DNA of 64,000 nt. Origin: Candidatus Parcubacteria bacterium. GTDB lineage: Bacteria; Patescibacteriota; Minisyncoccia; Phycocordibacterales; Zambryskibacteraceae. This document shows positions 10,675-28,101 of this stretch, piece after piece (positions within the stretch are counted from its first letter, which is position 1; every line of letters begins with the position of its first letter). Location: contig JAIFWP010000001.1 of assembly GCA_019661785.1 (NCBI GenBank), forward strand, positions 11,545 through 75,544, in the 5' to 3' direction. The translations under genes were made by a program, and so were the position numbers. The notes beneath the pieces were generated by a model, which was not told the origin of the DNA, searched no databases, and saw only the letters and a program-made list of their open reading frames with translations.

Positions 10675-11526
10675 ATGAAGAGTCTTAAAGAACAGATAGA
10701 GTGGGCCAGTGGGAAAGGTGTCGCCATAGGACACTTCAATGTCTCGGACTCGGAGGGCTTCAATGCCGTGGTGAGCGCCGCTACCGAGCTTGGCGTACCA
10801 GTCATCATCGGAGTGTCGGAGAAGGAGAGGAGCTTCCTCGGTGTAGCCGAGATACGAGCGCTCGTCACTGCCGAGCAGGGCAAGGGCTTGCCTGTGTACT
10901 TAAACGCGGACCATACCTACTCAGTAGAGGCCTCCAAGGAAGCGGTGGATAACCACTTCGACTCGGTCATCATCGACGGAGCCGAGAAGCCTTTCTTTGA
11001 GAATGTGATGATGACTAAAGAGGTGGTGAACTATGCTAAAGAAAAATATCCAGACATCTTAGTTGAGGGTGAGCTAGGCTTCATTGGTACAGGCTCAATG
11101 ATGCGAGATGAGATACCTGACGGAGTGTCGCTAGAGACCCAGACTACTGCCAAGGATGCCAAGAGCTTCGTCGACGAGACCTGTGTAGACCTCTTTGCCC
11201 CCTCTGTGGGCAATATCCACGGCCTTGTGAAAGGGGGCGAGCCTAAGTTGAATATTAAAAGGATTAAGGAGATAGCTAAGGCCGTATCAGTGCCTCTAGT
11301 CCTCCATGGCGCCTCAGGCAACACCGACGAGGAGGTCGCGGCTGCAATAGACGCAGGTATACTCATAGTACACATCAATACGGAACTAAGACTGGCTTAT
11401 AAAAAAGGCATCAAGAAAGGCATGTCCTCCGACGAAGCCGCCCCGTACAAATTCATGGCCGAAGGTGTCGAAGAAATGAAAAAACTCGCCACCCAGAAAC
11501 TCAGGGTATTTAATAAGATGCAATGA
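10675..11526 (+). CDS. fba: Class II fructose/tagatose-bisphosphate aldolase
   Basis: GVAIGHFNVSD, LHGASG and GILIVHINTELR class II aldolase blocks. ATG at 10675, only 15 nt from the divergent kinase start. Confidence 0.85.
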   Translation: MKSLKEQIEWASGKGVAIGHFNVSDSEGFNAVVSAATELGVPVIIGVSEKERSFLGVAEIRALVTAEQGKGLPVYLNADHTYSVEASKEAVDNHFDSVIIDGAEKPFFENVMMTKEVVNYAKEKYPDILVEGELGFIGTGSMMRDEIPDGVSLETQTTAKDAKSFVDETCVDLFAPSVGNIHGLVKGGEPKLNIKRIKEIAKAVSVPLVLHGASGNTDEEVAAAIDAGILIVHINTELRLAYKKGIKKGMSSDEAAPYKFMAEGVEEMKKLATQKLRVFNKMQ

Positions 11527-11816
11527 AGAGTATCTCGCTGGTTGTCTTTGCCGGACTTGTTATTATCGTGGGGTTCTTTTTCATACATGGGTCAGTAATC
11601 ATTAAAAAAGTTCCACTTACTGATCAGGAGGAAGCGTGTTTAAATGAGTTGCTACCAGTAGCTTTTGACGGAAAAGGGCAAGGCAAGGGATTTGTATACG
11701 TTACGAGTAAGGAAGATAACAAGATTTATCTTAAACTCTATGCTTTCGGGGAATTTGACTCAAATTGGATTGCCGAATGTCCTGGCGGGATAGGAAGAGC
11801 TGAGTTAATGAATTAA
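11523..11816 (+). CDS. Hypothetical small membrane-anchored protein
   Basis: 97 aa with N-terminal TM helix, overlapping ATGA junctions with both flanking genes. Confidence 0.45.
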   Translation: MKSISLVVFAGLVIIVGFFFIHGSVIIKKVPLTDQEEACLNELLPVAFDGKGQGKGFVYVTSKEDNKIYLKLYAFGEFDSNWIAECPGGIGRAELMN

Positions 11817-18314: not shown

Positions 18315-18776
18315 ATGACCGATATTACCACAGCTGACATCAAGGCCCTTCGCGAGGAGACAGGTCTCTCCATCGCTGAGTGCCGCAAGGCTCTCGAGGA
18401 GTCTAAGGGCGACAAGGCCGGAGCCCTTGAAATACTCAAGAATAGGAGCGTCGAGATAGCAGCCAAGAAGGGTGACCGAGCCCTCGGCTCTGGCACTGTA
18501 GCGAGCTACATCCACAATGCTGGTGCCTCAGGCACTTTGGTCGAGCTCTCATGCGAGACGGACTTCGTCTCGAAGAACGAAGAGTTCAAGAACATCGCCC
18601 GAGATATTGCTCTTCACATCGCAGCCATGAATCCAACGGACGTCTCAGAGCTCCTCACCCAGCCCTTTGTGAAGAGTCCCGACAAAACCATCCAGGACGT
18701 AGTGAACGGCGTTATACAGAAGTTCGGCGAGCGCACAGAGATACGCCGCTTCGCCCGATTCGCTGTCTCGGAGTAG
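18315..18776 (+). CDS. tsf: Elongation factor Ts (short form)
   Basis: N-terminal UBA-like TADIKALREETGLSIAECRKAL and SYIHNAGASGTLVELSCETDFV. Classic rpsB-tsf linkage. Confidence 0.85.
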   Translation: MTDITTADIKALREETGLSIAECRKALEESKGDKAGALEILKNRSVEIAAKKGDRALGSGTVASYIHNAGASGTLVELSCETDFVSKNEEFKNIARDIALHIAAMNPTDVSELLTQPFVKSPDKTIQDVVNGVIQKFGERTEIRRFARFAVSE

Positions 18777-19243: not shown

Positions 19244-19319
19244 GCCGCCTTAGCTCAGTTGGTAGAGCAACACTTTTGTAAAGTGAAGGTCCTCGGTTCG
19301 AATCCGAGAGGCGGCTCCA
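19244..19319 (+). tRNA. tRNA-Thr (anticodon UGU)
   Basis: Cloverleaf: acceptor GCCGCCT/AGGCGGC, D-arm GCTCAGTTGGTAGAGC, anticodon loop TTTGTAA, T-arm GGTTCGAATCC, encoded CCA. Confidence 0.9.
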
Positions 19320-20052: not shown

Positions 20053-21300
20053 CTATTTCCAGCTTATCTGCTTCCGCATGAGAGTACTATAAGTCGCCTT
20101 AGCAAGCCAGAGGGGAGGAAGGAAGATGTATAGAGCGAGGTAGTAGAACACATCCTTGCCCAGACGCACTCGACCCTCTGATATTTTGAGCGAGAAGAAG
20201 AGGAGGACTAGAGAGAGGGCCACAGCTGTCGAAGCGAGCCAGAACATGGTGCCGGTATCCATAGCAAACCAGTTAATGCTGAAGCTTGGCACATGAGGGT
20301 TGAAGCCGACTGCCTGGTACTTGAGCATCTGGTCGGGGATTTTTGCCACCATGCTCCAGACGAAGTTGCCCGCGGCGTATAAAGTGCTGAAGATAGAGAA
20401 GGTGGCCATGGGCAGGATGTAAACTCCTATGTGCCCATACTTCTTGTTGAAGTACATGTCGCGATAGTCGAAGGCATTGTTCAAGAATCCATAAGCCCAG
20501 CGCACTCGTTGCTTGTAGAGGCCTTTTAGCTTAGCTGGACCGATAGTGTATACAAAGGCGCTGTGGGAGTTGGCTATCTTGTAACCATGCTTCTGCATGC
20601 GGAGAGCCATCTCCATGTCCTCGGTGTGGTGAGCATGGCGATAGCCTCCAAGCTCGCTAAAGACCCTCGTGCGGAAGATGGAGAAAGGTCCAGGGGTGAC
20701 ATAGAGAGCCCCCATGGAGGCGAGTATTCGGCGCAGGAGGATGCCCCAGCTGTACTCTATCTTCTGCACATACTGGAGGACTGTCTTAGGCTCGTGGATT
20801 TTAATAGATGGGGTAACAGCCATGGTGTTCTCATCGTTGAAGTAGGGGACTATCTTCCTTAGAGCGGCGCTGTCGACGAAGGAGTCGGCATCGAGACAGC
20901 CCACAAGCTCGGTATCTACGATGGCGAGGCCGGCGTTAAGCGCGGCAAATTTGCTCCCCTCATTACGCTTCGAGAGTATTCTCACCTGAGGATGGTCTTT
21001 GAACTTCTGAAGCACTTTGAGTGTGCCGTCCGTAGAGCCGTCATCTACGAGGATGAGGGACAGGCTCTGGCTGGGGTAGTCGAGGTCAAGGAGGGATTTA
21101 ACGGTCTTCTCTACCGACCTCTCCTCGTTAAAAGAGGGCACAATGATAGAGACCGACGGGTAATGGCCGACCTCCTTTCCGTCGTGCTCCTTCTCGAACT
21201 TTATCTCCTCACGAATCTCAAAATAAGTGATGAGCAAAAGAATCTCGAAGAAGAGCGAGGCAAAAAGCGTAAAGTATAGGAAAAGACTAGAAATGGCCAT
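20053..21300 (-). CDS. Processive family-2 glycosyltransferase (PgaC/IcaA/NodC/HasA-like synthase)
   Basis: N- and C-terminal TM helices. GT-A core with VDDGSTDGT, DAD (CLDADSFVD) and the processive QRVRWAYG (QxxRW) motif. 415 aa. Confidence 0.85.
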   Translation of the reverse strand: MAISSLFLYFTLFASLFFEILLLITYFEIREEIKFEKEHDGKEVGHYPSVSIIVPSFNEERSVEKTVKSLLDLDYPSQSLSLILVDDGSTDGTLKVLQKFKDHPQVRILSKRNEGSKFAALNAGLAIVDTELVGCLDADSFVDSAALRKIVPYFNDENTMAVTPSIKIHEPKTVLQYVQKIEYSWGILLRRILASMGALYVTPGPFSIFRTRVFSELGGYRHAHHTEDMEMALRMQKHGYKIANSHSAFVYTIGPAKLKGLYKQRVRWAYGFLNNAFDYRDMYFNKKYGHIGVYILPMATFSIFSTLYAAGNFVWSMVAKIPDQMLKYQAVGFNPHVPSFSINWFAMDTGTMFWLASTAVALSLVLLFFSLKISEGRVRLGKDVFYYLALYIFLPPLWLAKATYSTLMRKQISWK

Positions 21301-21324
21301 AAATCTCAGTTACTATATCGTATA

Positions 21325-22485
21325 ATGCCCGATTTGCAAAAAACGCATCATATATCCTTAGACGATGAGAAGGCCCTTATCCTTAGCCTCGACAAGCGCA
21401 CTGACGCCGAGAGCGCCCGCATGCGCCGCTACCTCGGCATGCCCGACCTCTCAAGGACGCATGGGAGCCCTATACATGAGATGGTTGAGCGAGTCTTAGC
21501 GAGGCCCGAGTTCAAAAACTTCGACATCATAGAGACTCCTGAGATTGTTCCTGCGGATATAAGCTTCGACCTTTTCGACTTTCCGGCTAATCATCCGGCT
21601 CGCAGCTCGTCCGACACGTATTATGTTACCGACAAGAACATTCTCCGTACGCACACAACGGTGATGTGGTACTACTACCTGCAGTTGCCTGAAGTACGTG
21701 AGCGGATGGCGCGCGGCGAGTCGGTGGGCAGCTTCTCTTTCGGCAAAGTATATAGAAAGGACGAGATAGACAGAAACCACATGAATGTCTTCCATCAGCT
21801 CGACGGGTGGTATCTCGCGCCAAAGGACAAAGAGCCGCTCGGCGAGGAAGAGCTCAAGGGAGTCCTCCTGTCTATTGCCAAAGCTGTCTTCGGCGAAGCG
21901 GTCATAAGCCGATTCAACCCAGATACCTTCCCCTACACCAACCATTCGCTTGAGATGGAGATAGATAAAAATGGCAAATGGGTCGAGGTTTTGGGAAGCG
22001 GGATAGTGAAGGATAGCGTATTAGAGAAGTTTGGCATTGATTCGACGAAGTGGAACGGCTGGGCCTTCGGCTTCGGGCTCGAGCGGCTGGCTATCATCTC
22101 AATGGAGCTTCCAGACATCCGACTCCTGTGGTCGGAGGACGAACGAGTGAAGAAGCAGCTTGTACTTGGGCAGAAATATAAGGAAGTATCTAAGTTCCCA
22201 CCCGTAGTACGCGATATTTCGTTTGTGGTGGATAATGCCTCCTTTGTCTTAAATGATTACTTTGACTCTATCCGCGAGATTGGAGGCGACCAAGTGGAGC
22301 AAGTCGAGCTCATCGATAAGTATGAGAATGCCGCTAAGTTCGGCGCAGACAAAACAAGCTACACCTTCCGCATTACCTATAGAGATCTCAACAAGACACT
22401 GACTAACTCTGAAGTTAACGACATGCATGCCAAGGTTGAGGAGGCTACGGCTAAGGAATTCGGCGGGGTAATACGTCTCTCGTAA
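21325..22485 (+). CDS. pheS: Phenylalanyl-tRNA synthetase alpha-type catalytic core fused to a C-terminal FDX-ACB (anticodon-binding) domain (monomeric mitochondrial-type PheRS architecture)
   Basis: Class II motifs NHPARSSSDTYYV, LRTHTT and GWAFGFGLERLAII. The C-terminal ~100 aa (VVRDISFVVD...TSYTFRITYRDLNKTLTNSEVN...) matches the FDX-ACB domain normally at the PheT C-terminus. No pheT adjacent. Confidence 0.85.
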   Translation: MPDLQKTHHISLDDEKALILSLDKRTDAESARMRRYLGMPDLSRTHGSPIHEMVERVLARPEFKNFDIIETPEIVPADISFDLFDFPANHPARSSSDTYYVTDKNILRTHTTVMWYYYLQLPEVRERMARGESVGSFSFGKVYRKDEIDRNHMNVFHQLDGWYLAPKDKEPLGEEELKGVLLSIAKAVFGEAVISRFNPDTFPYTNHSLEMEIDKNGKWVEVLGSGIVKDSVLEKFGIDSTKWNGWAFGFGLERLAIISMELPDIRLLWSEDERVKKQLVLGQKYKEVSKFPPVVRDISFVVDNASFVLNDYFDSIREIGGDQVEQVELIDKYENAAKFGADKTSYTFRITYRDLNKTLTNSEVNDMHAKVEEATAKEFGGVIRLS

Positions 22486-22486
22486 T

Positions 22487-23077
22487 ATGGCATGGATATA
22501 TAGAGTTGGTCTTCTGAAAAGCGATGTTGATGAGTCTTTGCTTAAAAAGTCTGAGCTCAAGTATGAGGAAGTGGAGGTGGAGACTGCTCTACGCGCGCAT
22601 ATAGATGAGACTTTAGGGAAGCCATATAAACTCCAGACATCTATGCGAGAGGATGCCCCAAACTTCTTCAGCTGTTCGTCCTTGCCGAGTTACCTATATG
22701 TTTTTGCCGGAGTGTTCATGCCGAGCCTCGTCATAGAGAAGTTTAATTTTACTAAGCCAGTTACTCGAGAGGAGCTAAGGTTTGGCGACTTCGTCTACTC
22801 CTTCAACGATGCAGATGTGGACAGGAAGTCGCCGAACCACATGGGCATATATATGGGTGATGGCAAAATCCTCCAAGCCGCAGGGTATTGGTATAAGGGG
22901 CAAGTGCTCATCGAGGATCTGGACAAGAGCCCTTCCTTCGAAAATATTGTAGGATATGGCAGAGTAGTAGATGACTTGAGCGAGAAGCGATATGTGGTCG
23001 AGATACCCGAGGACAGGCCCGACTTGCAAAATAAGAACAATTTGATAAAAGAGTTAGAAAAATATGGCCACCAATAA
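22487..23077 (+). CDS. NlpC/P60 family papain-like cysteine peptidase (no signal peptide)
   Basis: Catalytic Cys in FSCSSLPSYLY, His in NHMGIYMGDGKILQA. Starts 1 nt after the pheS stop. Confidence 0.8.
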   Translation: MAWIYRVGLLKSDVDESLLKKSELKYEEVEVETALRAHIDETLGKPYKLQTSMREDAPNFFSCSSLPSYLYVFAGVFMPSLVIEKFNFTKPVTREELRFGDFVYSFNDADVDRKSPNHMGIYMGDGKILQAAGYWYKGQVLIEDLDKSPSFENIVGYGRVVDDLSEKRYVVEIPEDRPDLQNKNNLIKELEKYGHQ

Positions 23078-23702
23078 GCCAGCCAGCAAAGATAGGCGAC
23101 AAAAGCCCGAGACCAAGGTCACGGTGAAGACCATTTTGCCTGTACCCTTTGTCTCGCAGTACGAGATAGGACGCGACTCCGACGGTCTCTCGCGCGCCTG
23201 CGGCGCCGCTTGCGTGAAGATGGTTCTCGACTACAGGGGCGGTGAGGCTCCCAACTTCCTTGCTCTCGTGCGCGAGGGTCAGACTATGCGTGGGGCGTAC
23301 ATCTCCGGTATCGGCTGGACTCATGCTGGACTTGCAGCACTCCTAAGGAACCACAACGTCGGTGCCTATGCCGAGGAGTTCCGCGCGGTTGATGTCGATG
23401 CCAAGAACAGGGAGTTCCTCCCATCGCACTTCGAGGCTGGACATATTGAGCGCGGTATACAAAAGATTGCAGGCAAGATTTTAGACTGGAAGCAGCCAGT
23501 CATCGTCTCAGGAGTGAAGAATTGGAAAGAGAAGGACAAATGGCACCTCATGGTGGTCACAGGCGTAGAGAAGGATGGAGACAGGATAGCCGGCTTTTTC
23601 TATCACGACCCAGACGACGAGGACAAAGATGGTCGAGACAACTTCGTAGACAAGGAAACCTTCCGCACCTACTGGCGCAAGTTTGCGATATTCGTGGACT
23701 AA
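23064..23702 (+). CDS. Stand-alone peptidase C39-like (papain-fold) domain protein
   Basis: Q(x13)CGAACVKMVLDYRG matches the C39 Q...CG.AC..M..Y.G block. His in WHLMVVTG, Asp in YHDPDD. No ABC transporter domain and no signal peptide. Confidence 0.7.
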   Translation: MATNKPASKDRRQKPETKVTVKTILPVPFVSQYEIGRDSDGLSRACGAACVKMVLDYRGGEAPNFLALVREGQTMRGAYISGIGWTHAGLAALLRNHNVGAYAEEFRAVDVDAKNREFLPSHFEAGHIERGIQKIAGKILDWKQPVIVSGVKNWKEKDKWHLMVVTGVEKDGDRIAGFFYHDPDDEDKDGRDNFVDKETFRTYWRKFAIFVD

Positions 23703-24019: not shown

Positions 24020-24673
24020 CTAGTGCGCGGTGGAGAGGCCCAATGCTCGGACAAAGAGCTTAATGACATCATCGACCTTGCCACTCATCACCAGGTCGAT
24101 ATGCTTGTCCTCCATACCGCATTCGCCGAGCTTTTGGAGGAAGAGCTCTTTGTGCTTGTCTGGTGGCGGGAGCGGGGTAGGCAGTGTGTCGGCGCCCTTC
24201 TCTTGGGCAGGAAGGCCGAGTATTTCCACCATCGTCTTTCTTGCTTCGGCCAGGGTCTGCTTTTTGTTGCCCATCTCTTCGATCAGGCAATAAGCAGCGT
24301 TGCTACCGGCGCTCTCTGTACTGAGGATGCAGATGAGGCCGAGGAGGAGATGTTCGGTGCCGACGTAGCTCATGCTGAGCCCTCGAGCCTCCGACATGGC
24401 CGACTCGAGCACTTTCTTGGCTTTGAAGGTATAGGGGAGATCCGGGCCCGCCTTCCCTTTGCCCTTTGACAACCTTTTCTCGATCTCTCTATTAAGCTTG
24501 TCGAGGTCGATATTGAGGCGGAGCAGGATCGTTGCGCCAACCCCTTCCCCCTCGCGCAGCAACCCGAGCAGGATGTGCTCAGGCCCGACGAACTCGTGAT
24601 GGAAACGCGCTGCTTCCTCGCGAGCCATTGAAAGGACCTTGCGTACTCGTTCGGTAAAGTTGTAGCCGTTCAT
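24020..24673 (-). CDS. Stand-alone Clp N-terminal domain protein (two Clp_N repeats)
   Basis: Repeat 1 FTERVRKVLSMAREEAARFHHEFVGPEHILLGLL. Repeat 2 YTFKAKKVLESAMSEARGLSMSYVGTEHLLLGL. No AAA+ module follows. Confidence 0.78.
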   Translation of the reverse strand: MNGYNFTERVRKVLSMAREEAARFHHEFVGPEHILLGLLREGEGVGATILLRLNIDLDKLNREIEKRLSKGKGKAGPDLPYTFKAKKVLESAMSEARGLSMSYVGTEHLLLGLICILSTESAGSNAAYCLIEEMGNKKQTLAEARKTMVEILGLPAQEKGADTLPTPLPPPDKHKELFLQKLGECGMEDKHIDLVMSGKVDDVIKLFVRALGLSTAH

Positions 24674-24752
24674 GGACCCCTCCTGGGGCAGCTGGATGTC
24701 TATTCCCACCCTATCATTTACCCCTAAAATTTGCTATAATTATGGGTACCAA

Positions 24753-26813
24753 ATGCCCGAAAAAGCCAAGCAAACAGGCCATAAATACGACGCCCAATCC
24801 ATCACCGTCCTTGAGGGTCTGGAACCTGTCCGCAAGAGACCCGGGATGTACATTGGTACGACGGGTCCCGACGGCCTCCATCACCTCATCTGGGAGATTT
24901 TTGACAACTCACGCGACGAGGCCATGGGCGGCTTTGCGAGCGACATTGAGGTGGCTCTTCTGCCAAGTAACCGCATCAGAGTAGTCGACAACGGCCGCGG
25001 CATACCAGTCGACACTCACAAGCAGACCAAGGTATCGGCTCTTGAGACTATCATGACTACGCTCCATGCCGGAGGTAAGTTCTCTGGCGAGGGCTACCAA
25101 GTCTCGGGCGGACTGCACGGTGTGGGCGCCTCGGTAGTGAATGCCCTCTCCACTTACTGCCGCGTTGACGTGCACAAGGACGGCGGTATCTACATGCAGG
25201 AGTACGCTATGGGCAAGCGCAAGGCCGCAGTGAAGAAGGTGGGTTCTACCAAACAGCAAGGCACAGTTGTGACCTTCCAGCCTGACCCATCCATATTCCC
25301 CGACACCAACTTCGACTTCAAAAAGGTTGTGAACCACTTGCGCCAGCAGGCTTACCTCGTTAAGGGCCTTCGCATCACTGTCATTGACGCCAGAGAAACT
25401 CCTAAGGTGGATGCAGAAGACGTCTTCTACGTCCGCGAGCTAGGACTTGAGGCACCAAGCATGGGCTTCTACTTCGAGGGCGGGCTCATGTCCTTGGTTA
25501 AGTTTGAGAACCAGCTCCAGAAGCCGGTACACAAAAATATCTTCTATGTGGAGAAAGCTGCCAATGGTAACGACTATGAGACTGTCGAGGTAGCGTTACA
25601 GTATGTCGACGACATCTCCTCGCGCATATTGCCCTTCGCCAACAACATCTACAATGCCGAGGGCGGCACGCATGTCACAGGCTTCAAGACCGCTCTCACC
25701 AGAACTTTAAACACATACGCCCGCAAAAATAATTTAGTGAAGGAGAGCGAGGACAACTTCACTGGTGAGGATGTGCTCGAGGGTCTTACGGCTGTCATCT
25801 CGGTCAAACTGCGTGAGATACAGTTCGAGGGTCAGACTAAGGGCAAGCTTGGCTCAGTAGAGGCTCAGGCTATGGTCACAACCATCTTCGGTGAGGCTTT
25901 CTCTGCCTTCCTTGAGGAGAACCCAGACGACGCTAGAGCCATGATAAACAAGGTGGTCCTCGCCCTTAAGGCCAGGAAGGCTGCTAAGGCTGCTAAGGAC
26001 TCTGTGCTGCGCAAGGGCGCTCTTGAGGGCATGACCCTGCCCGGCAAGCTCGCAGACTGCTCCTCGCGCTCAGCTGAGGAGTCTGAGCTCTTCATCGTAG
26101 AGGGAGACTCTGCCGGCGGTACGGCCAAGATGGGCCGCGACAGGCGCACTCAGGCTATCCTGCCTTTGCGCGGAAAGATTTTGAACATCGAACGTGCTCG
26201 TTTGGACCGTATGCTTGGGAGCGAGCAAATCAAGAACCTCGTTGTGGCTCTCGGTACAGCCATAGGAGACACCTTCGACCTCTCTAAACTCCGCTACCAT
26301 AAGATAATCATAGCTACGGATGCCGACGTCGACGGCGCGCACATACGCACGCTCCTCCTCACGCTCTTCTACCGACACTTCCGCCTAGTTATCGATGGGG
26401 GCTTTATATACATCGCGCAGCCGCCTCTCTACAAGATAAGGAAGGGTAAGGAAGTGCACTATGCGTACACAGACGCGGAGAAGAACAAGATTGTCGGAGC
26501 TGATATAAACGTCGAGGATACTATTGAGGAGAATGCCGAAATAAATACAGAGGATACCGAAGCAGAGGAAGAGGAGAACCCAAAGAAGAAGTCAGCTAAA
26601 GTCTCTATCCAGCGCTACAAAGGTCTGGGAGAAATGAACGCAGAGGAGCTCTGGGAGACGACCATGGACCCTAAGGTCCGCATATTGAAGCAAGTCACCG
26701 TGGAAGACGCTCGCGATGCCGACAAAGTCTTCGACATCCTCATGGGCACCGATGTCCCGTCCCGCAAATCCTTCATCCAGTCAAACGCAAAGAAAGCTAC
26801 GCTCGACGTTTAA
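24753..26813 (+). CDS. gyrB: DNA gyrase subunit B
   Basis: GHKL ATPase N-terminus (GLHHLIWEIFDNSRDEA), Toprim EGDSAGG, PLRGKILN, QRYKGLGEM. Extended -10 tgcTATAAT at 24732-24740. Confidence 0.92.
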   Translation: MPEKAKQTGHKYDAQSITVLEGLEPVRKRPGMYIGTTGPDGLHHLIWEIFDNSRDEAMGGFASDIEVALLPSNRIRVVDNGRGIPVDTHKQTKVSALETIMTTLHAGGKFSGEGYQVSGGLHGVGASVVNALSTYCRVDVHKDGGIYMQEYAMGKRKAAVKKVGSTKQQGTVVTFQPDPSIFPDTNFDFKKVVNHLRQQAYLVKGLRITVIDARETPKVDAEDVFYVRELGLEAPSMGFYFEGGLMSLVKFENQLQKPVHKNIFYVEKAANGNDYETVEVALQYVDDISSRILPFANNIYNAEGGTHVTGFKTALTRTLNTYARKNNLVKESEDNFTGEDVLEGLTAVISVKLREIQFEGQTKGKLGSVEAQAMVTTIFGEAFSAFLEENPDDARAMINKVVLALKARKAAKAAKDSVLRKGALEGMTLPGKLADCSSRSAEESELFIVEGDSAGGTAKMGRDRRTQAILPLRGKILNIERARLDRMLGSEQIKNLVVALGTAIGDTFDLSKLRYHKIIIATDADVDGAHIRTLLLTLFYRHFRLVIDGGFIYIAQPPLYKIRKGKEVHYAYTDAEKNKIVGADINVEDTIEENAEINTEDTEAEEEENPKKKSAKVSIQRYKGLGEMNAEELWETTMDPKVRILKQVTVEDARDADKVFDILMGTDVPSRKSFIQSNAKKATLDV

Positions 26814-28014
26814 TCTCTTCTCTTAGTTTTGAAATGAGTTCTTCGATTGAGAGGACTTCCTTAGTGCCGTTGCGACTTTCTACAGTGAGTTTCTGGTCAG
26901 CTACCTCCTTGTCGCCTATGACTATGGCGTAGGGGATTTTCTCGGTTTTCACATTGCGGACCTTCTTGCCCAAAGACTCGCTAGATTCATCGAGTTCGGC
27001 GCGGATGCCCTCGGCTTTTAACTTCTCTGTCACTGACTTTGCGTATTCAAAGTGAGCTTCGCCAATAGGGAGGACCTTCACCTGCACAGGAGCGAGCCAG
27101 AGAGGGAGGACTCCCTCAAGATGCTCAAGGACTACAGCCACGAAGCGTTCAATGGAGCCCATGATAGCGGAGTGGATCATGACTACGCGCTCCTTCTCAC
27201 CTTTTTCGTTCACGCAGGTGAGGTCGAAGCGCTCTGGGAGCTGCATGTCGAGCTGGATGGTAGCTACCTGCCACTCGCGGCCGGCGGCGTTCTTCGCTAC
27301 GAAGTCGAGCTTCGGTCCGTAGAGAGCGGCTTCGCCCGGTCCCTCGAAGAAGTCTGCTCCGCGCTCGGCAGCTATCTCACGCAACTCACTCTCGGCCTTG
27401 TCCCATATAGCTGGAGTGCCAAGGTACTTCTCTGGTGTTGCCGGGTCGCGGAAGGAGAGGCGCACTCGCAGGGTGAAGCCGAAGGCCTTGTAGAAGCTGT
27501 CTACGATATCCCATATCTTATTGAACTCGTCCTTAATCTGCGGAGTGCGGCAGAAGACGTGTGAGTCGTCCTGAGTGATAGAGAGCACGCGAGTAAGGCC
27601 GCCAAGCTCGCCGGACTGCTCGTCGCGGTAGACCATGGTCGTCTCGGCGTAGCGCTGAGGCATCTCGCGATAGCTGTGGGGCTTGCGGGCGAATATCTGT
27701 ATATGGTGAGGGCAGTTCATTGGCTTGAGCGCATACTCCTTGCCCTCGCGCGAAGTAAGCTTGAAGAGGTCATCAGCGAACTTCTCCCAGTGGCCGCTCG
27801 TCTCGTAGAGGTCTCGCTTGGTGATGTGAGGGATAGTGACGCGGTCGTAGTTGTGCTTGGAGCGGAGTTCCCAGACGAACTTGTCTAGCTCGCCGCGCAC
27901 TATTGTACCCTTAGGGGTCCAGAGGGGGAGTCCTGGGCCGACTAGCTCGGAGAAGGTGAAGAGGTCAAGCTCCTTGCCTAACCTGCGGTGGTCGTTGGGT
28001 TCCATTTCAGTCAT
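26797..28014 (-). CDS. thrS: Threonyl-tRNA synthetase, catalytic + anticodon-binding domains only (no TGS/editing N-domains)
   Basis: Begins at the ThrRS core motif DHRRLGKELDLF, has KPMNCPHH, class II motifs and a C-terminal anticodon-binding domain. The upstream ORF extension lacks any TGS/N2 homology. Confidence 0.85.
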   Translation of the reverse strand: MTEMEPNDHRRLGKELDLFTFSELVGPGLPLWTPKGTIVRGELDKFVWELRSKHNYDRVTIPHITKRDLYETSGHWEKFADDLFKLTSREGKEYALKPMNCPHHIQIFARKPHSYREMPQRYAETTMVYRDEQSGELGGLTRVLSITQDDSHVFCRTPQIKDEFNKIWDIVDSFYKAFGFTLRVRLSFRDPATPEKYLGTPAIWDKAESELREIAAERGADFFEGPGEAALYGPKLDFVAKNAAGREWQVATIQLDMQLPERFDLTCVNEKGEKERVVMIHSAIMGSIERFVAVVLEHLEGVLPLWLAPVQVKVLPIGEAHFEYAKSVTEKLKAEGIRAELDESSESLGKKVRNVKTEKIPYAIVIGDKEVADQKLTVESRNGTKEVLSIEELISKLREEIKRRA

Positions 28015-28101
28015 GGAAGAGATTGTAGCATTTTGACAATGAGGCTGGAAGGAGTATAAATATCCAAAGAAAGCATCCCTCAACCTTTTGCCGAGAGACT
28101 T

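Follow-up and report, generated by a model that had tools for sequence, protein, structure and literature searches.

The 64,000-nucleotide stretch analysed here, which we call the window, belongs to a Candidatus Parcubacteria bacterium (assembly GCA_019661785.1, contig JAIFWP010000001.1, positions 11,545 to 75,544 of the forward strand). At positions 21325-22485 it carries a gene in which a PheS-type catalytic module, that of the alpha subunit of phenylalanyl-tRNA synthetase (PheRS), is followed on the same chain by an FDX-ACB anticodon-binding domain, which is otherwise the C-terminal domain of the beta subunit, PheT. This fused gene most likely encodes a single-chain PheRS of mitochondrial style, which has displaced pheS-pheT in its own slot and would be the sole PheRS of the cell, free of editing. 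The protein has the architecture and the predicted fold of human mitochondrial PheRS and retains the PheRS motifs. The gene occupies the position that pheS and pheT hold in related genomes, a remnant of pheT lies beside it, and the replacement recurs among Parcubacteria.

According to a review, all known prokaryotes have conserved the heterotetrameric form of PheRS; among enzymes with a class II catalytic module, only mitochondrial PheRS, in which the alpha module is joined to the beta domain B8 as a chimera, is known to be monomeric. In the full-text literature, subscription journals being outside its coverage, we found no published description of a monomeric PheRS in bacteria or in the Candidate Phyla Radiation (CPR), of the protein family SrmL, or of the absence of pheT in Patescibacteria. 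The architecture and the mechanism are already known from the mitochondrial enzyme; what is new is the bacterial, locus-replacing and recurrent occurrence, and the relic of pheT.

In the proposed mechanism, the PheS-type class II module would activate phenylalanine and transfer it to tRNAPhe, and the C-terminal FDX-ACB domain would read the GAA anticodon on the same chain, so that no beta subunit would be needed. The ancestral pheS-pheT would have been displaced at its own position, between a GT2 glycosyltransferase gene and gyrB. What remains of pheT would be a B5 domain that is split by an NlpC/P60 hydrolase domain, encoded by a separate downstream gene that is probably translationally coupled to the fused gene. 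If it is the sole PheRS in the cell, the enzyme would work without the B3/B4 post-transfer editing site.

Architecture, active site and fold of the fused protein

The fused gene is composed of the following parts:
21325..22485, + strand: fused gene of the putative single-chain PheRS, 386 amino acids from ATG (PF01409 and PF03147; 100% identical to KW800_00180)
21325..21456, + strand: N-terminal extension, residues 1-44, three short helices (secondary structure of the AlphaFold2 (AF2) model; the Pfam core begins at residue 45; conserved in the family)
21457..22158, + strand: class IIc catalytic module, residues 45-278 (HPAR, DTYY, LRTHTT, motif 2 segment GKVYRKDEIDRNHMNVFHQLDG, FPYTNHS, motif 3 segment GWAFGFGLERL, PheS C-terminal tail PDIRLLWSEDERVKKQL)
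22159..22188, + strand: short linker, residues 279-288, from the PheS-type tail to the FDX-ACB start (SKFPPVVRDISF) (alignment with E. coli and Parcubacteria PheS, which end here, and with the start of the PheT FDX-ACB domain)
22189..22476, + strand: FDX-ACB (B8-type) anticodon-binding domain, residues 289-384 (PF03147; C-terminus of TIGR00472 pheT_bact; Parcubacteria PheT C-termini by tblastn)

A preliminary description of this gene, made from the letters alone, had read it as a 386-residue PheS-like protein with the motifs HPAR...DTYY, LRTHTT, GWAFGFGLERL, VVRDISFVVD and YTFRITYRDLNKTLTNSEVN, all of which are located in the open reading frame (ORF) 21325..22485 (+). It had taken the last ~100 residues for an FDX-ACB domain, in agreement with a full-length match to PF03147 (residues 289-384, profile positions 1-94 of 94, E 1.5e-22). 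The catalytic module matches PF01409 (tRNA-synt_2d) at residues 45-278 with E 1.2e-52 and 179.3 bits, the cutoff being 19.8. Both Pfam matches are far above the chance level. With its score above the Pfam gathering score, and with motifs that align with those of E. coli and Parcubacteria PheS, the module belongs to the class IIc PheRS modules. The N-terminal extension, residues 1-44, differs from the classical PheS coiled coil. An alternative TTG start at 21334 gives a protein of 383 residues, which agrees with the NCBI model. The divergent GT2 gene starts at 21300, just 24 bp away from the ATG at 21325. A TATAAT hexamer at 21321-21326 overlaps this ATG, and 7 nt further downstream comes the TTG. 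Either codon may be the start, and the mRNA may have a short leader or none.

Its sequence matches that of 'hypothetical protein KW800_00180 [Candidatus Parcubacteria bacterium]', encoded on a 102-kb contig, at 100% identity. Among the matches listed, more than 100 homologues of ~380 residues with the same two Pfam domains have 67-82% identity to it; they come from metagenome-assembled genomes (MAGs) of Parcubacteria, Paceibacterota and Minisyncoccia. The fused architecture of ~380 residues is found uninterrupted in hundreds of independent contigs (NCBI, JGI, ENA, Logan) and at 9 other loci of our survey. This conservation (67-82% identity, hundreds of clusters) is on par with that of the adjacent housekeeping genes, the window being a core-gene region with RNR, GAPDH, RF1, S2, Tsf, GyrB, ThrRS, DnaE, SMC, RpoB/C, DnaG and RpoD.

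Across 30 members of the fused family, the invariant residues are H90, P91 and R93; D97, T98, Y99 and Y100; L107, R108, T109, T111 and T112; R144; H157, Q158, D160 and G161; F202, P203, T205 and S208; and A247, F248, G249, G251, E253 and R254. The motifs HPxR, DTYY, LRTxTT, FHQxDG and FPxTxxS, the motif 2 arginine and the PheS C-terminal tail are thus kept, and the specificity alanine and the motif 3 arginine in GWAFGxGxER are also invariant. On the strength of these conserved motifs we take the window protein to be a PheRS, which would synthesise Phe-tRNAPhe. We infer that this fused PheRS is monomeric and has lost editing.

The closest sequences in the PDB are all human mitochondrial PheRS entries (E ~3e-57); in this search, bacterial PheS chains cover just the core and PheT chains just the last 100 residues. 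The AF2 model of the fused protein, built from 30 homologues, has a pLDDT of 89.9 and a pTM of 0.83, and its top Foldseek neighbours are seven human mitochondrial PheRS entries with E 8e-33 to 6e-32. The closed-state structures 5MGV, 5MGH, 5MGW, 5MGU, 3CMQ and 8P8X align to the model with TMq 0.71-0.72 over ~390 columns, and the open, tRNA-bound state 3TUP with TMq 0.55. The domain order, PF01409 and then PF03147, is that of the monomeric mitochondrial enzyme, as the preliminary description had proposed, and the structural superposition on human mitochondrial PheRS that it had called for bears this out (Foldseek TM 0.71).

Profile comparison, also called for there, gave a mixed answer. The fused protein scores higher with the mitochondrial-type model pheS_mito (TIGR00469, 227.5 bits) than with pheS (TIGR00468, 155.8 bits), each value being under the cutoff of its own model (258.35 and 237.45, respectively). 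The TIGR00469 cutoff is straddled by the fused family, since P0121, a representative 63% identical to the window protein, reaches 264.3 bits. The window protein is not a TIGR00468 member, given its low score and a chain that runs on into FDX-ACB, with no adjacent pheT; for comparison, PheS of the neighbouring-lineage locus L134 reaches 299.6 bits with this model. The top NCBIfam model is that of SrmL, NF051887, at 247.3 bits and below the cutoff of 300. The NCBI label 'hypothetical' follows from this position between NCBIfam families. In the databases, sequences of the fused type are named 'PheS alpha chain' or 'hypothetical protein', or carry the name of the SrmL model.

The pheS-pheT slot and the remnant of pheT

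The slot in the window is made of the following features:
18315..18776, + strand: EF-Ts, short form of 153 amino acids, synteny anchor for fetching loci (translation; synteny scan)
19244..19319, + strand: tRNA-Thr(UGU), conserved anchor between Tsf and the PheRS slot (same order in PMX_810_sub)
20053..21300, - strand: GT2 glycosyltransferase, divergent, left flank of the slot (Pfam; in most loci directly before pheS or the fused gene)
22487..23077, + strand: stand-alone B5a-NlpC/P60-B5b module, putative pheT relic, 196 amino acids (NCBI 'C40 family peptidase')
23064..23702, + strand: Peptidase_C39_2-like gene (Pfam; tblastn synteny)
24672..26813, + strand: gyrB, right flank of the slot (translation; synteny)

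No intact pheT was found in the 64-kb window, in which the large ORFs were checked and tblastn was run with Parcubacteria PheS and PheT. This tblastn search gave three matches only, namely the fused core, its ACB domain and the next ORF downstream; with the same queries neither B3/4 nor B6/7 nor another PheS was found in the window. The preliminary description had stated that no pheT follows the gene, that the next genes are two peptidases and that the B3/4 editing site would be lacking. The absence of an intact pheT and of a detectable B3/4 holds over the window; the first of the two 'peptidases' is instead a fragment of pheT.

This fragment, ORF 22487-23077, is a relic of pheT, as judged from collinear homology. 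Its residues 2-194 align with the B5a-NlpC/P60-B5b part of long PheT proteins (E 4e-38 to 8e-26), its end coincides with the boundary of B5 and shows the B5 signature ...VVEIPEDRPDLQNKNNLIKELEKYG, and the segments that flank its NlpC/P60 domain form a B5-like fold. The long PheTs, of 739-803 amino acids, are found in six canonical loci. In them, NlpC/P60 is inserted within a split B5 domain (Pfam), its catalytic Cys, His and His being conserved, and a hidden Markov model of B5, made from PheTs with an unbroken domain, is divided by them at positions 40-44. To our knowledge, an NlpC/P60-type insertion has not been described in any tRNA synthetase. The relic is 77-78% identical in L130 and L147, and the catalytic Cys63 and His118 of the module are invariant. 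Among the survey loci, stand-alone copies of the module occur only where pheT is gone, namely in the window, L130 and L147; the stand-alone module has 64 homologues, many of them apparently on the same contigs as fused PheRS genes. The ORF begins 1 nt past the stop of the fused gene (TAA-T-ATG), a gap that suggests translational coupling of the two. The C39-like gene follows pheT in L168 and L172 and follows the relic in the window, and it therefore marks the original 3' boundary of pheT. The ancestral pheT would thus have been taken apart where it stood, and this speaks against an intact operon that has moved elsewhere.

The slot was surveyed in an EF-Ts-anchored scan of GTDB species genomes, which gave 80 loci that were probed by tblastn with the window proteins and with E. 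coli PheS and PheT. Loci outside the counts given here were too short or belonged to non-CPR outgroups. ENA labels such as 'uncultured Candidatus Saccharibacteria' conflict with the Parcubacteria-type synteny of several loci and were not used. The conserved Parcubacteria block runs L25, SLT, RF1, S2, Tsf, (a hypothetical gene, tRNA-Thr), a hypothetical gene (-), GT2 (-), a variable position and, further on, gyrB. The window has the order S2, Tsf, a hypothetical gene and tRNA-Thr(tgt), with the fused gene 2 kb on, and the Paceibacteria genome PMX_810_sub has Tsf, a hypothetical gene, tRNA-Thr(tgt), a hypothetical gene, pheS and pheT (PMC10936435). The variable position is taken by pheS and pheT in 34 loci, to which come 3 further loci whose contigs stop within pheS or directly behind it (37 in total). 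It is taken by the fused gene in 10 loci (8 of the survey, L001 and the window), five times on the + strand and five times on the - strand, and by SrmL in one survey locus, L175. None of the surveyed loci has two PheRS types. The EF-Ts of the window (153 amino acids) is without a 43-residue internal segment of the L001 form (196 amino acids), and both lengths recur among Parcubacteria loci.

The other genes referred to are located as follows:
L134, 12902-13738 and 13742-15571: representative canonical pheS and pheT
L157, 14708-15472 and 15465-17363: representative canonical pheS and pheT
L132, 13532-15874: long PheT with NlpC/P60 in B5
L144, 5170-7512: long PheT with NlpC/P60 in B5
L155, 13919-16312: long PheT with NlpC/P60 in B5
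L168, 14985-17336: long PheT with NlpC/P60 in B5
L172, 15024-17378: long PheT with NlpC/P60 in B5
L207, 15833-18256: long PheT with NlpC/P60 in B5
L175, 14518-15765: SrmL
L214, 10001-11200: SrmL

The canonical genes are genuine: in L134, PheS reaches 299.6 bits (cutoff 237) and PheT 459 (cutoff 403). They encode a reduced PheRS, in which PheS, with 238-266 amino acids, has no N-terminal coiled-coil arm for tRNA binding. PheT, with ~590-650 amino acids, has no B1/B2, and its match to E. coli PheT begins only at residue ~150. CPR PheRS-beta proteins have been mentioned by Mukai et al. Two alpha-only representatives, P0245 and P0256, were rejected as sources of CPR PheT, since one belongs to a Gram-negative bacterium that has an Mla system and the other to a eukaryote; no pheT adjoins either of them.

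The replacement is recurrent. A neighbour-joining (NJ) species tree with simple distances was made from L25, RF1, S2, Tsf and GyrB (1648 columns, 500 bootstraps). It joins the window and L130 at 100%, and the window, L130, L147 and the L175 genome at 81%. The fused-gene locus L143 is placed with the canonical loci L134 and L140 at 94%, within a wider, otherwise all-canonical clade at 100%; its markers are 76-77% identical to those of L134 and L140. The DNA of L143 and L134 stays collinear as far as the GT2/pheS boundary, and collinearity resumes at gyrB; in the interval L143 has 2.3 kb with the fused gene and L134 has 3.5 kb with pheS-pheT. Since L143 is nested among canonical genomes, the operon would have been replaced by the fused gene more than once, each time in this slot. 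The simplest explanation is exchange of a cassette between related Parcubacteria, which would have proceeded via the conserved flanks. In a subclade of L131, L136, L143, L169 and L180, whose proteins are 57-61% identical to that of the window, the fused gene stands in the same slot on the minus strand, opposite to Tsf and gyrB, which is consistent with independent insertions rather than with vertical inheritance of one rearrangement.

SrmL, the 'PheS-related mystery ligase' (NF051887), is a Patescibacteria family with 612 matches. The L175 protein is a bona fide SrmL with 370 bits, true SrmL proteins having 370-446, and its genome nests inside the window-type clade. SrmL adjoins gyrB in L214, and in L175 two hypothetical genes lie between them; no other PheRS gene was found within 20 kb of SrmL in L175 or L214. 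It is plausible that SrmL may be the sole, highly diverged PheRS of the genomes that carry it. In L175, an HNH endonuclease gene (11365-11805) lies right after tRNA-Thr, where other loci have the pair of a hypothetical gene (-) and GT2 (-), and it may be the trace of a mobile element.

Origin of the fused gene and alternative explanations

The catalytic core was placed in an NJ tree of 204 columns with 200 bootstraps, in which long-branch attraction is possible. All canonical PheS proteins, from Parcubacteria and E. coli, are split from all fused forms at 100% bootstrap. The canonical Parcubacteria PheS group with E. coli, with a mean identity of 53% over the aligned core. Among the fused forms, the Parcubacteria clade (78%) is joined in turn by P0124/P0128 (75%), by Oligoflexia proteins (76%) and by SrmL (54%). 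This bacterial assemblage is the sister of a 78-tip group that includes S. osmophilus Msf1 and the mitochondrial PheRS of Branchiostoma and Salpingoeca; it is not placed inside the eukaryotic mitochondrial clade in this tree, the deep nodes of which are weak to moderate (54-78%). Mean blastp values of the window protein are 46% identity and 236 bits for the core and 55 bits for ACB (partial alignment) with Oligoflexia proteins; 40%, 156 bits and 61 bits with phage-like proteins; 32.9%, 130 bits and 72 bits with mitochondrial PheRS; and 31.6%, 118 bits and 42 bits with the local canonical PheS/PheT. The signatures YR+DEIDRxH, GWAFG and SxSDxYY link the fused forms, mitochondrial and phage, and are absent from local PheS.

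Fused genes were also seen outside the slot. In L004 (10001-11047; ENA contig GROS21-1 scaffold_19, 340,874 bp), and also in L005, there is a gene of 348 amino acids with a PheS core and FDX-ACB. The L004 contig has dense small hypothetical ORFs, PhageMetallopep, a SNF2 helicase and PcfJ, and looks like a huge phage with a single-chain PheRS; its cluster representative P0135, with 308 bits, is above the pheS_mito cutoff. An Oligoflexia MAG (GCA_019694465.1; L003, 10001-11245) has a fused PheRS-like gene of 414 amino acids, 45% identical to the window protein, next to the non-housekeeping genes beta-lactamase, MR_MLE and peptidase M20, and this may be an auxiliary paralogue in a non-CPR bacterium. 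P0128 lies in the neighbourhood of an ATP synthase operon.

We tentatively favour the view, drawn from comparison of these sequences and from trees that are based on distances, that an already fused gene would have been acquired and that pheST would have decayed afterwards. A simple internal deletion of pheS-pheT was rejected, with the reservation that NJ trees are prone to long-branch artefacts. It is opposed by the tree and by the shared signatures, and ACB followed by B5-NlpC is the reverse of the PheT order, so that such a deletion cannot yield it. A different local origin, which concerns the descent of the gene and not its function, is unlikely in our view. In it, the 3' end of pheS would have been joined to the B8 part of pheT within Parcubacteria, followed by fast divergence, and the likeness to mitochondrial PheRS would be due to convergence or long-branch attraction. 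The identical chromosomal slot with the pheT relic alongside speaks for it, as do a junction made of a complete PheS tail, 9 residues and a canonical FDX-ACB start, the use of NJ trees only, and a core that is barely nearer to mitochondrial PheRS than to local PheS. These points are opposed by the 100% split of fused from canonical cores, with Parcubacteria PheS on the side of E. coli, by the three signatures common to the mitochondrial and phage forms, by an ACB domain nearer to the mitochondrial one than to local PheT, by the reversed order of ACB and B5-NlpC, and by L143, which gained its minus-strand copy recently within a canonical clade.

Several points weigh against the fused gene being the sole PheRS. 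Its pocket departs twice from the classical consensus: FHQxEG has Asp in place of Glu, and FPFT has Tyr in place of its second Phe. The change of Glu to Asp is found too in some other representatives of the fused-type family. The protein is under all three equivalog cutoffs (pheS_mito, pheS and SrmL). If SrmL, which is found in the same slot, is not a PheRS, occupancy of the slot alone is no proof of PheRS function. Finally, the search spans the 64-kb window of a 102-kb contig, and a relocated pheS-pheT could lie elsewhere in the MAG. The fused gene might then be an accessory paralogue, a PheS-related ligase of other function beside a canonical heterotetrameric PheRS, in keeping with SrmL as the best, sub-cutoff NCBIfam match, with the canonical pheS/pheT of other Parcubacteria, and with the neighbourhood of the Oligoflexia gene, which is as for an extra paralogue. 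We consider this very unlikely. The gene occupies precisely the pheST slot, and both types were never seen together in one locus; the decayed pheT fragment alongside points to an operon dismantled in place and not moved; the residues of the PheRS pocket, of ATP binding and of motif 3 are invariant, unlike those of SrmL; and the comparison with L134 shows a clean swap. The exact slot, which holds pheST in 37 genomes, the relic and the clean breakpoint against a close canonical relative also make a relocated pheT improbable, and we infer that pheS and pheT are absent from the rest of the genome.

A further reading takes in the downstream neighbour. The fused chain and the B5-NlpC/P60 protein could together be a two-component enzyme, an 'alpha plus mini-beta', in which the papain-like domain would be hydrolytic, with a proofreading role or another role directed to tRNA or peptides. 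The 1-nt gap TAATATG, the invariant Cys63 and His118, the PheT-derived module conserved in L130 and L147, its presence on many contigs that also carry fused genes and its place as an integral part of PheT in sister lineages all point this way; we nevertheless hold this reading to be rather improbable. The source of the window is a MAG and the NCBI product is a 'hypothetical protein', which might raise the suspicion of a mis-assembly, a frameshifted pheS-pheT or a pseudogene. Such an artefact is effectively refuted by the uninterrupted architecture in hundreds of independent contigs and at the 9 other loci, by the confident and compact AF2 model and by the invariant functional motifs.

A wider picture can be drawn only tentatively, and taken jointly its parts are somewhat unlikely. 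The pheST locus would be a swappable cassette that holds a reduced alpha2beta2 PheRS, a single-chain PheRS, or SrmL, which would then be a sole PheRS too, more diverged and with its amino-acid pocket rebuilt. Single-chain PheRS would have arisen or circulated in bacteria and phages before eukaryotes or independently of them, so that the bacterial genes would be the nearest free-living relatives of FARS2/Msf1 and a candidate source of them, and the B5-NlpC/P60 protein would be a possible partner in trans of an editing-free PheRS.

Significance and comparison with known PheRS systems

These results suggest that bacteria, besides mitochondria, may run on a minimal, editing-free PheRS. The minimal single-chain design can probably support a whole cellular proteome, and cis-editing of Tyr-tRNAPhe would be dispensable in such ultra-small symbionts. 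A second synthetase of the window also appears, from its sequence, to be without an editing domain. This ThrRS (26797-28083, - strand) has 428 amino acids, with a class II core and an HGTP anticodon domain but without the N-terminal TGS/tRNA_SAD region for editing, and it lies ~400 bp from dnaE; the ThrRS at the corresponding position of L214 has 591 amino acids and a tRNA_SAD match.

Close genomes that differ only in the PheRS type at one slot are a natural experiment, useful for estimating the cost of editing loss and for aminoacyl-tRNA synthetase engineering. The bacterial sister sequences bear on the question of the origin of mitochondrial PheRS, and a concrete function is suggested for the unexplained SrmL family of NCBI. 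Both pheS and pheT are among the markers for bacterial phylogeny and completeness (e.g. GTDB bac120), and as such they would be systematically 'missing' in lineages with the fused gene; the replacement gene is at present labelled hypothetical by PGAP.

Compared with the canonical (alpha-beta)2 PheRS (TIGR00468/TIGR00472), the window enzyme has a homologous catalytic module and FDX-ACB domain in the same chromosomal slot, and the substrates are presumably shared. However, it is encoded by one gene and not two, B1/B2, B3/4 and B6/7 are absent, as is the partner of the heterotetramer interface, and its core is ~32% identical to the canonical PheS of its neighbours. SrmL has the same two-domain architecture, a similar length and, in L175 and L214, the same slot. 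The pocket of SrmL is lost or remodelled at HPAR, DTYY, FHQxEG, FPFTxPS and GWAFG, whereas the window family keeps HPAR, DTYY, FHQxDG, FPYTxxS and GWAFGFGLER; the window protein is not a SrmL, given its sub-cutoff score and the separate clades in the core tree. The fused genes of the phage-like 340-kb contig and of the Oligoflexia MAG have the same architecture, with 40-46% core identity. Unlike the window gene, they lie outside the pheST slot and are probably auxiliary copies.

The closest known system is the monomeric mitochondrial PheRS (FARS2, PDB 3CMQ/3TUP; yeast Msf1; TIGR00469; 'PheRS-M' in AARS Online). Like the window protein, it has an alpha-type catalytic module and B8/FDX-ACB on one chain, with no B3/B4, and the two have in common the signatures YR+DEIDRxH, GWAFG, PDIRLxWSxDxR and SKxPxxxxDISF. 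The window protein differs in having D for E in FHQxEG and Y for F in FPFT, and it lacks the mitochondrial insertion that divides the alignment into two stretches. Unlike mitochondrial PheRS, its gene stands in a bacterial chromosome at the pheST locus, and the protein belongs to a bacterial clade that is the sister of the eukaryotic mitochondrial clade and is not nested inside it.

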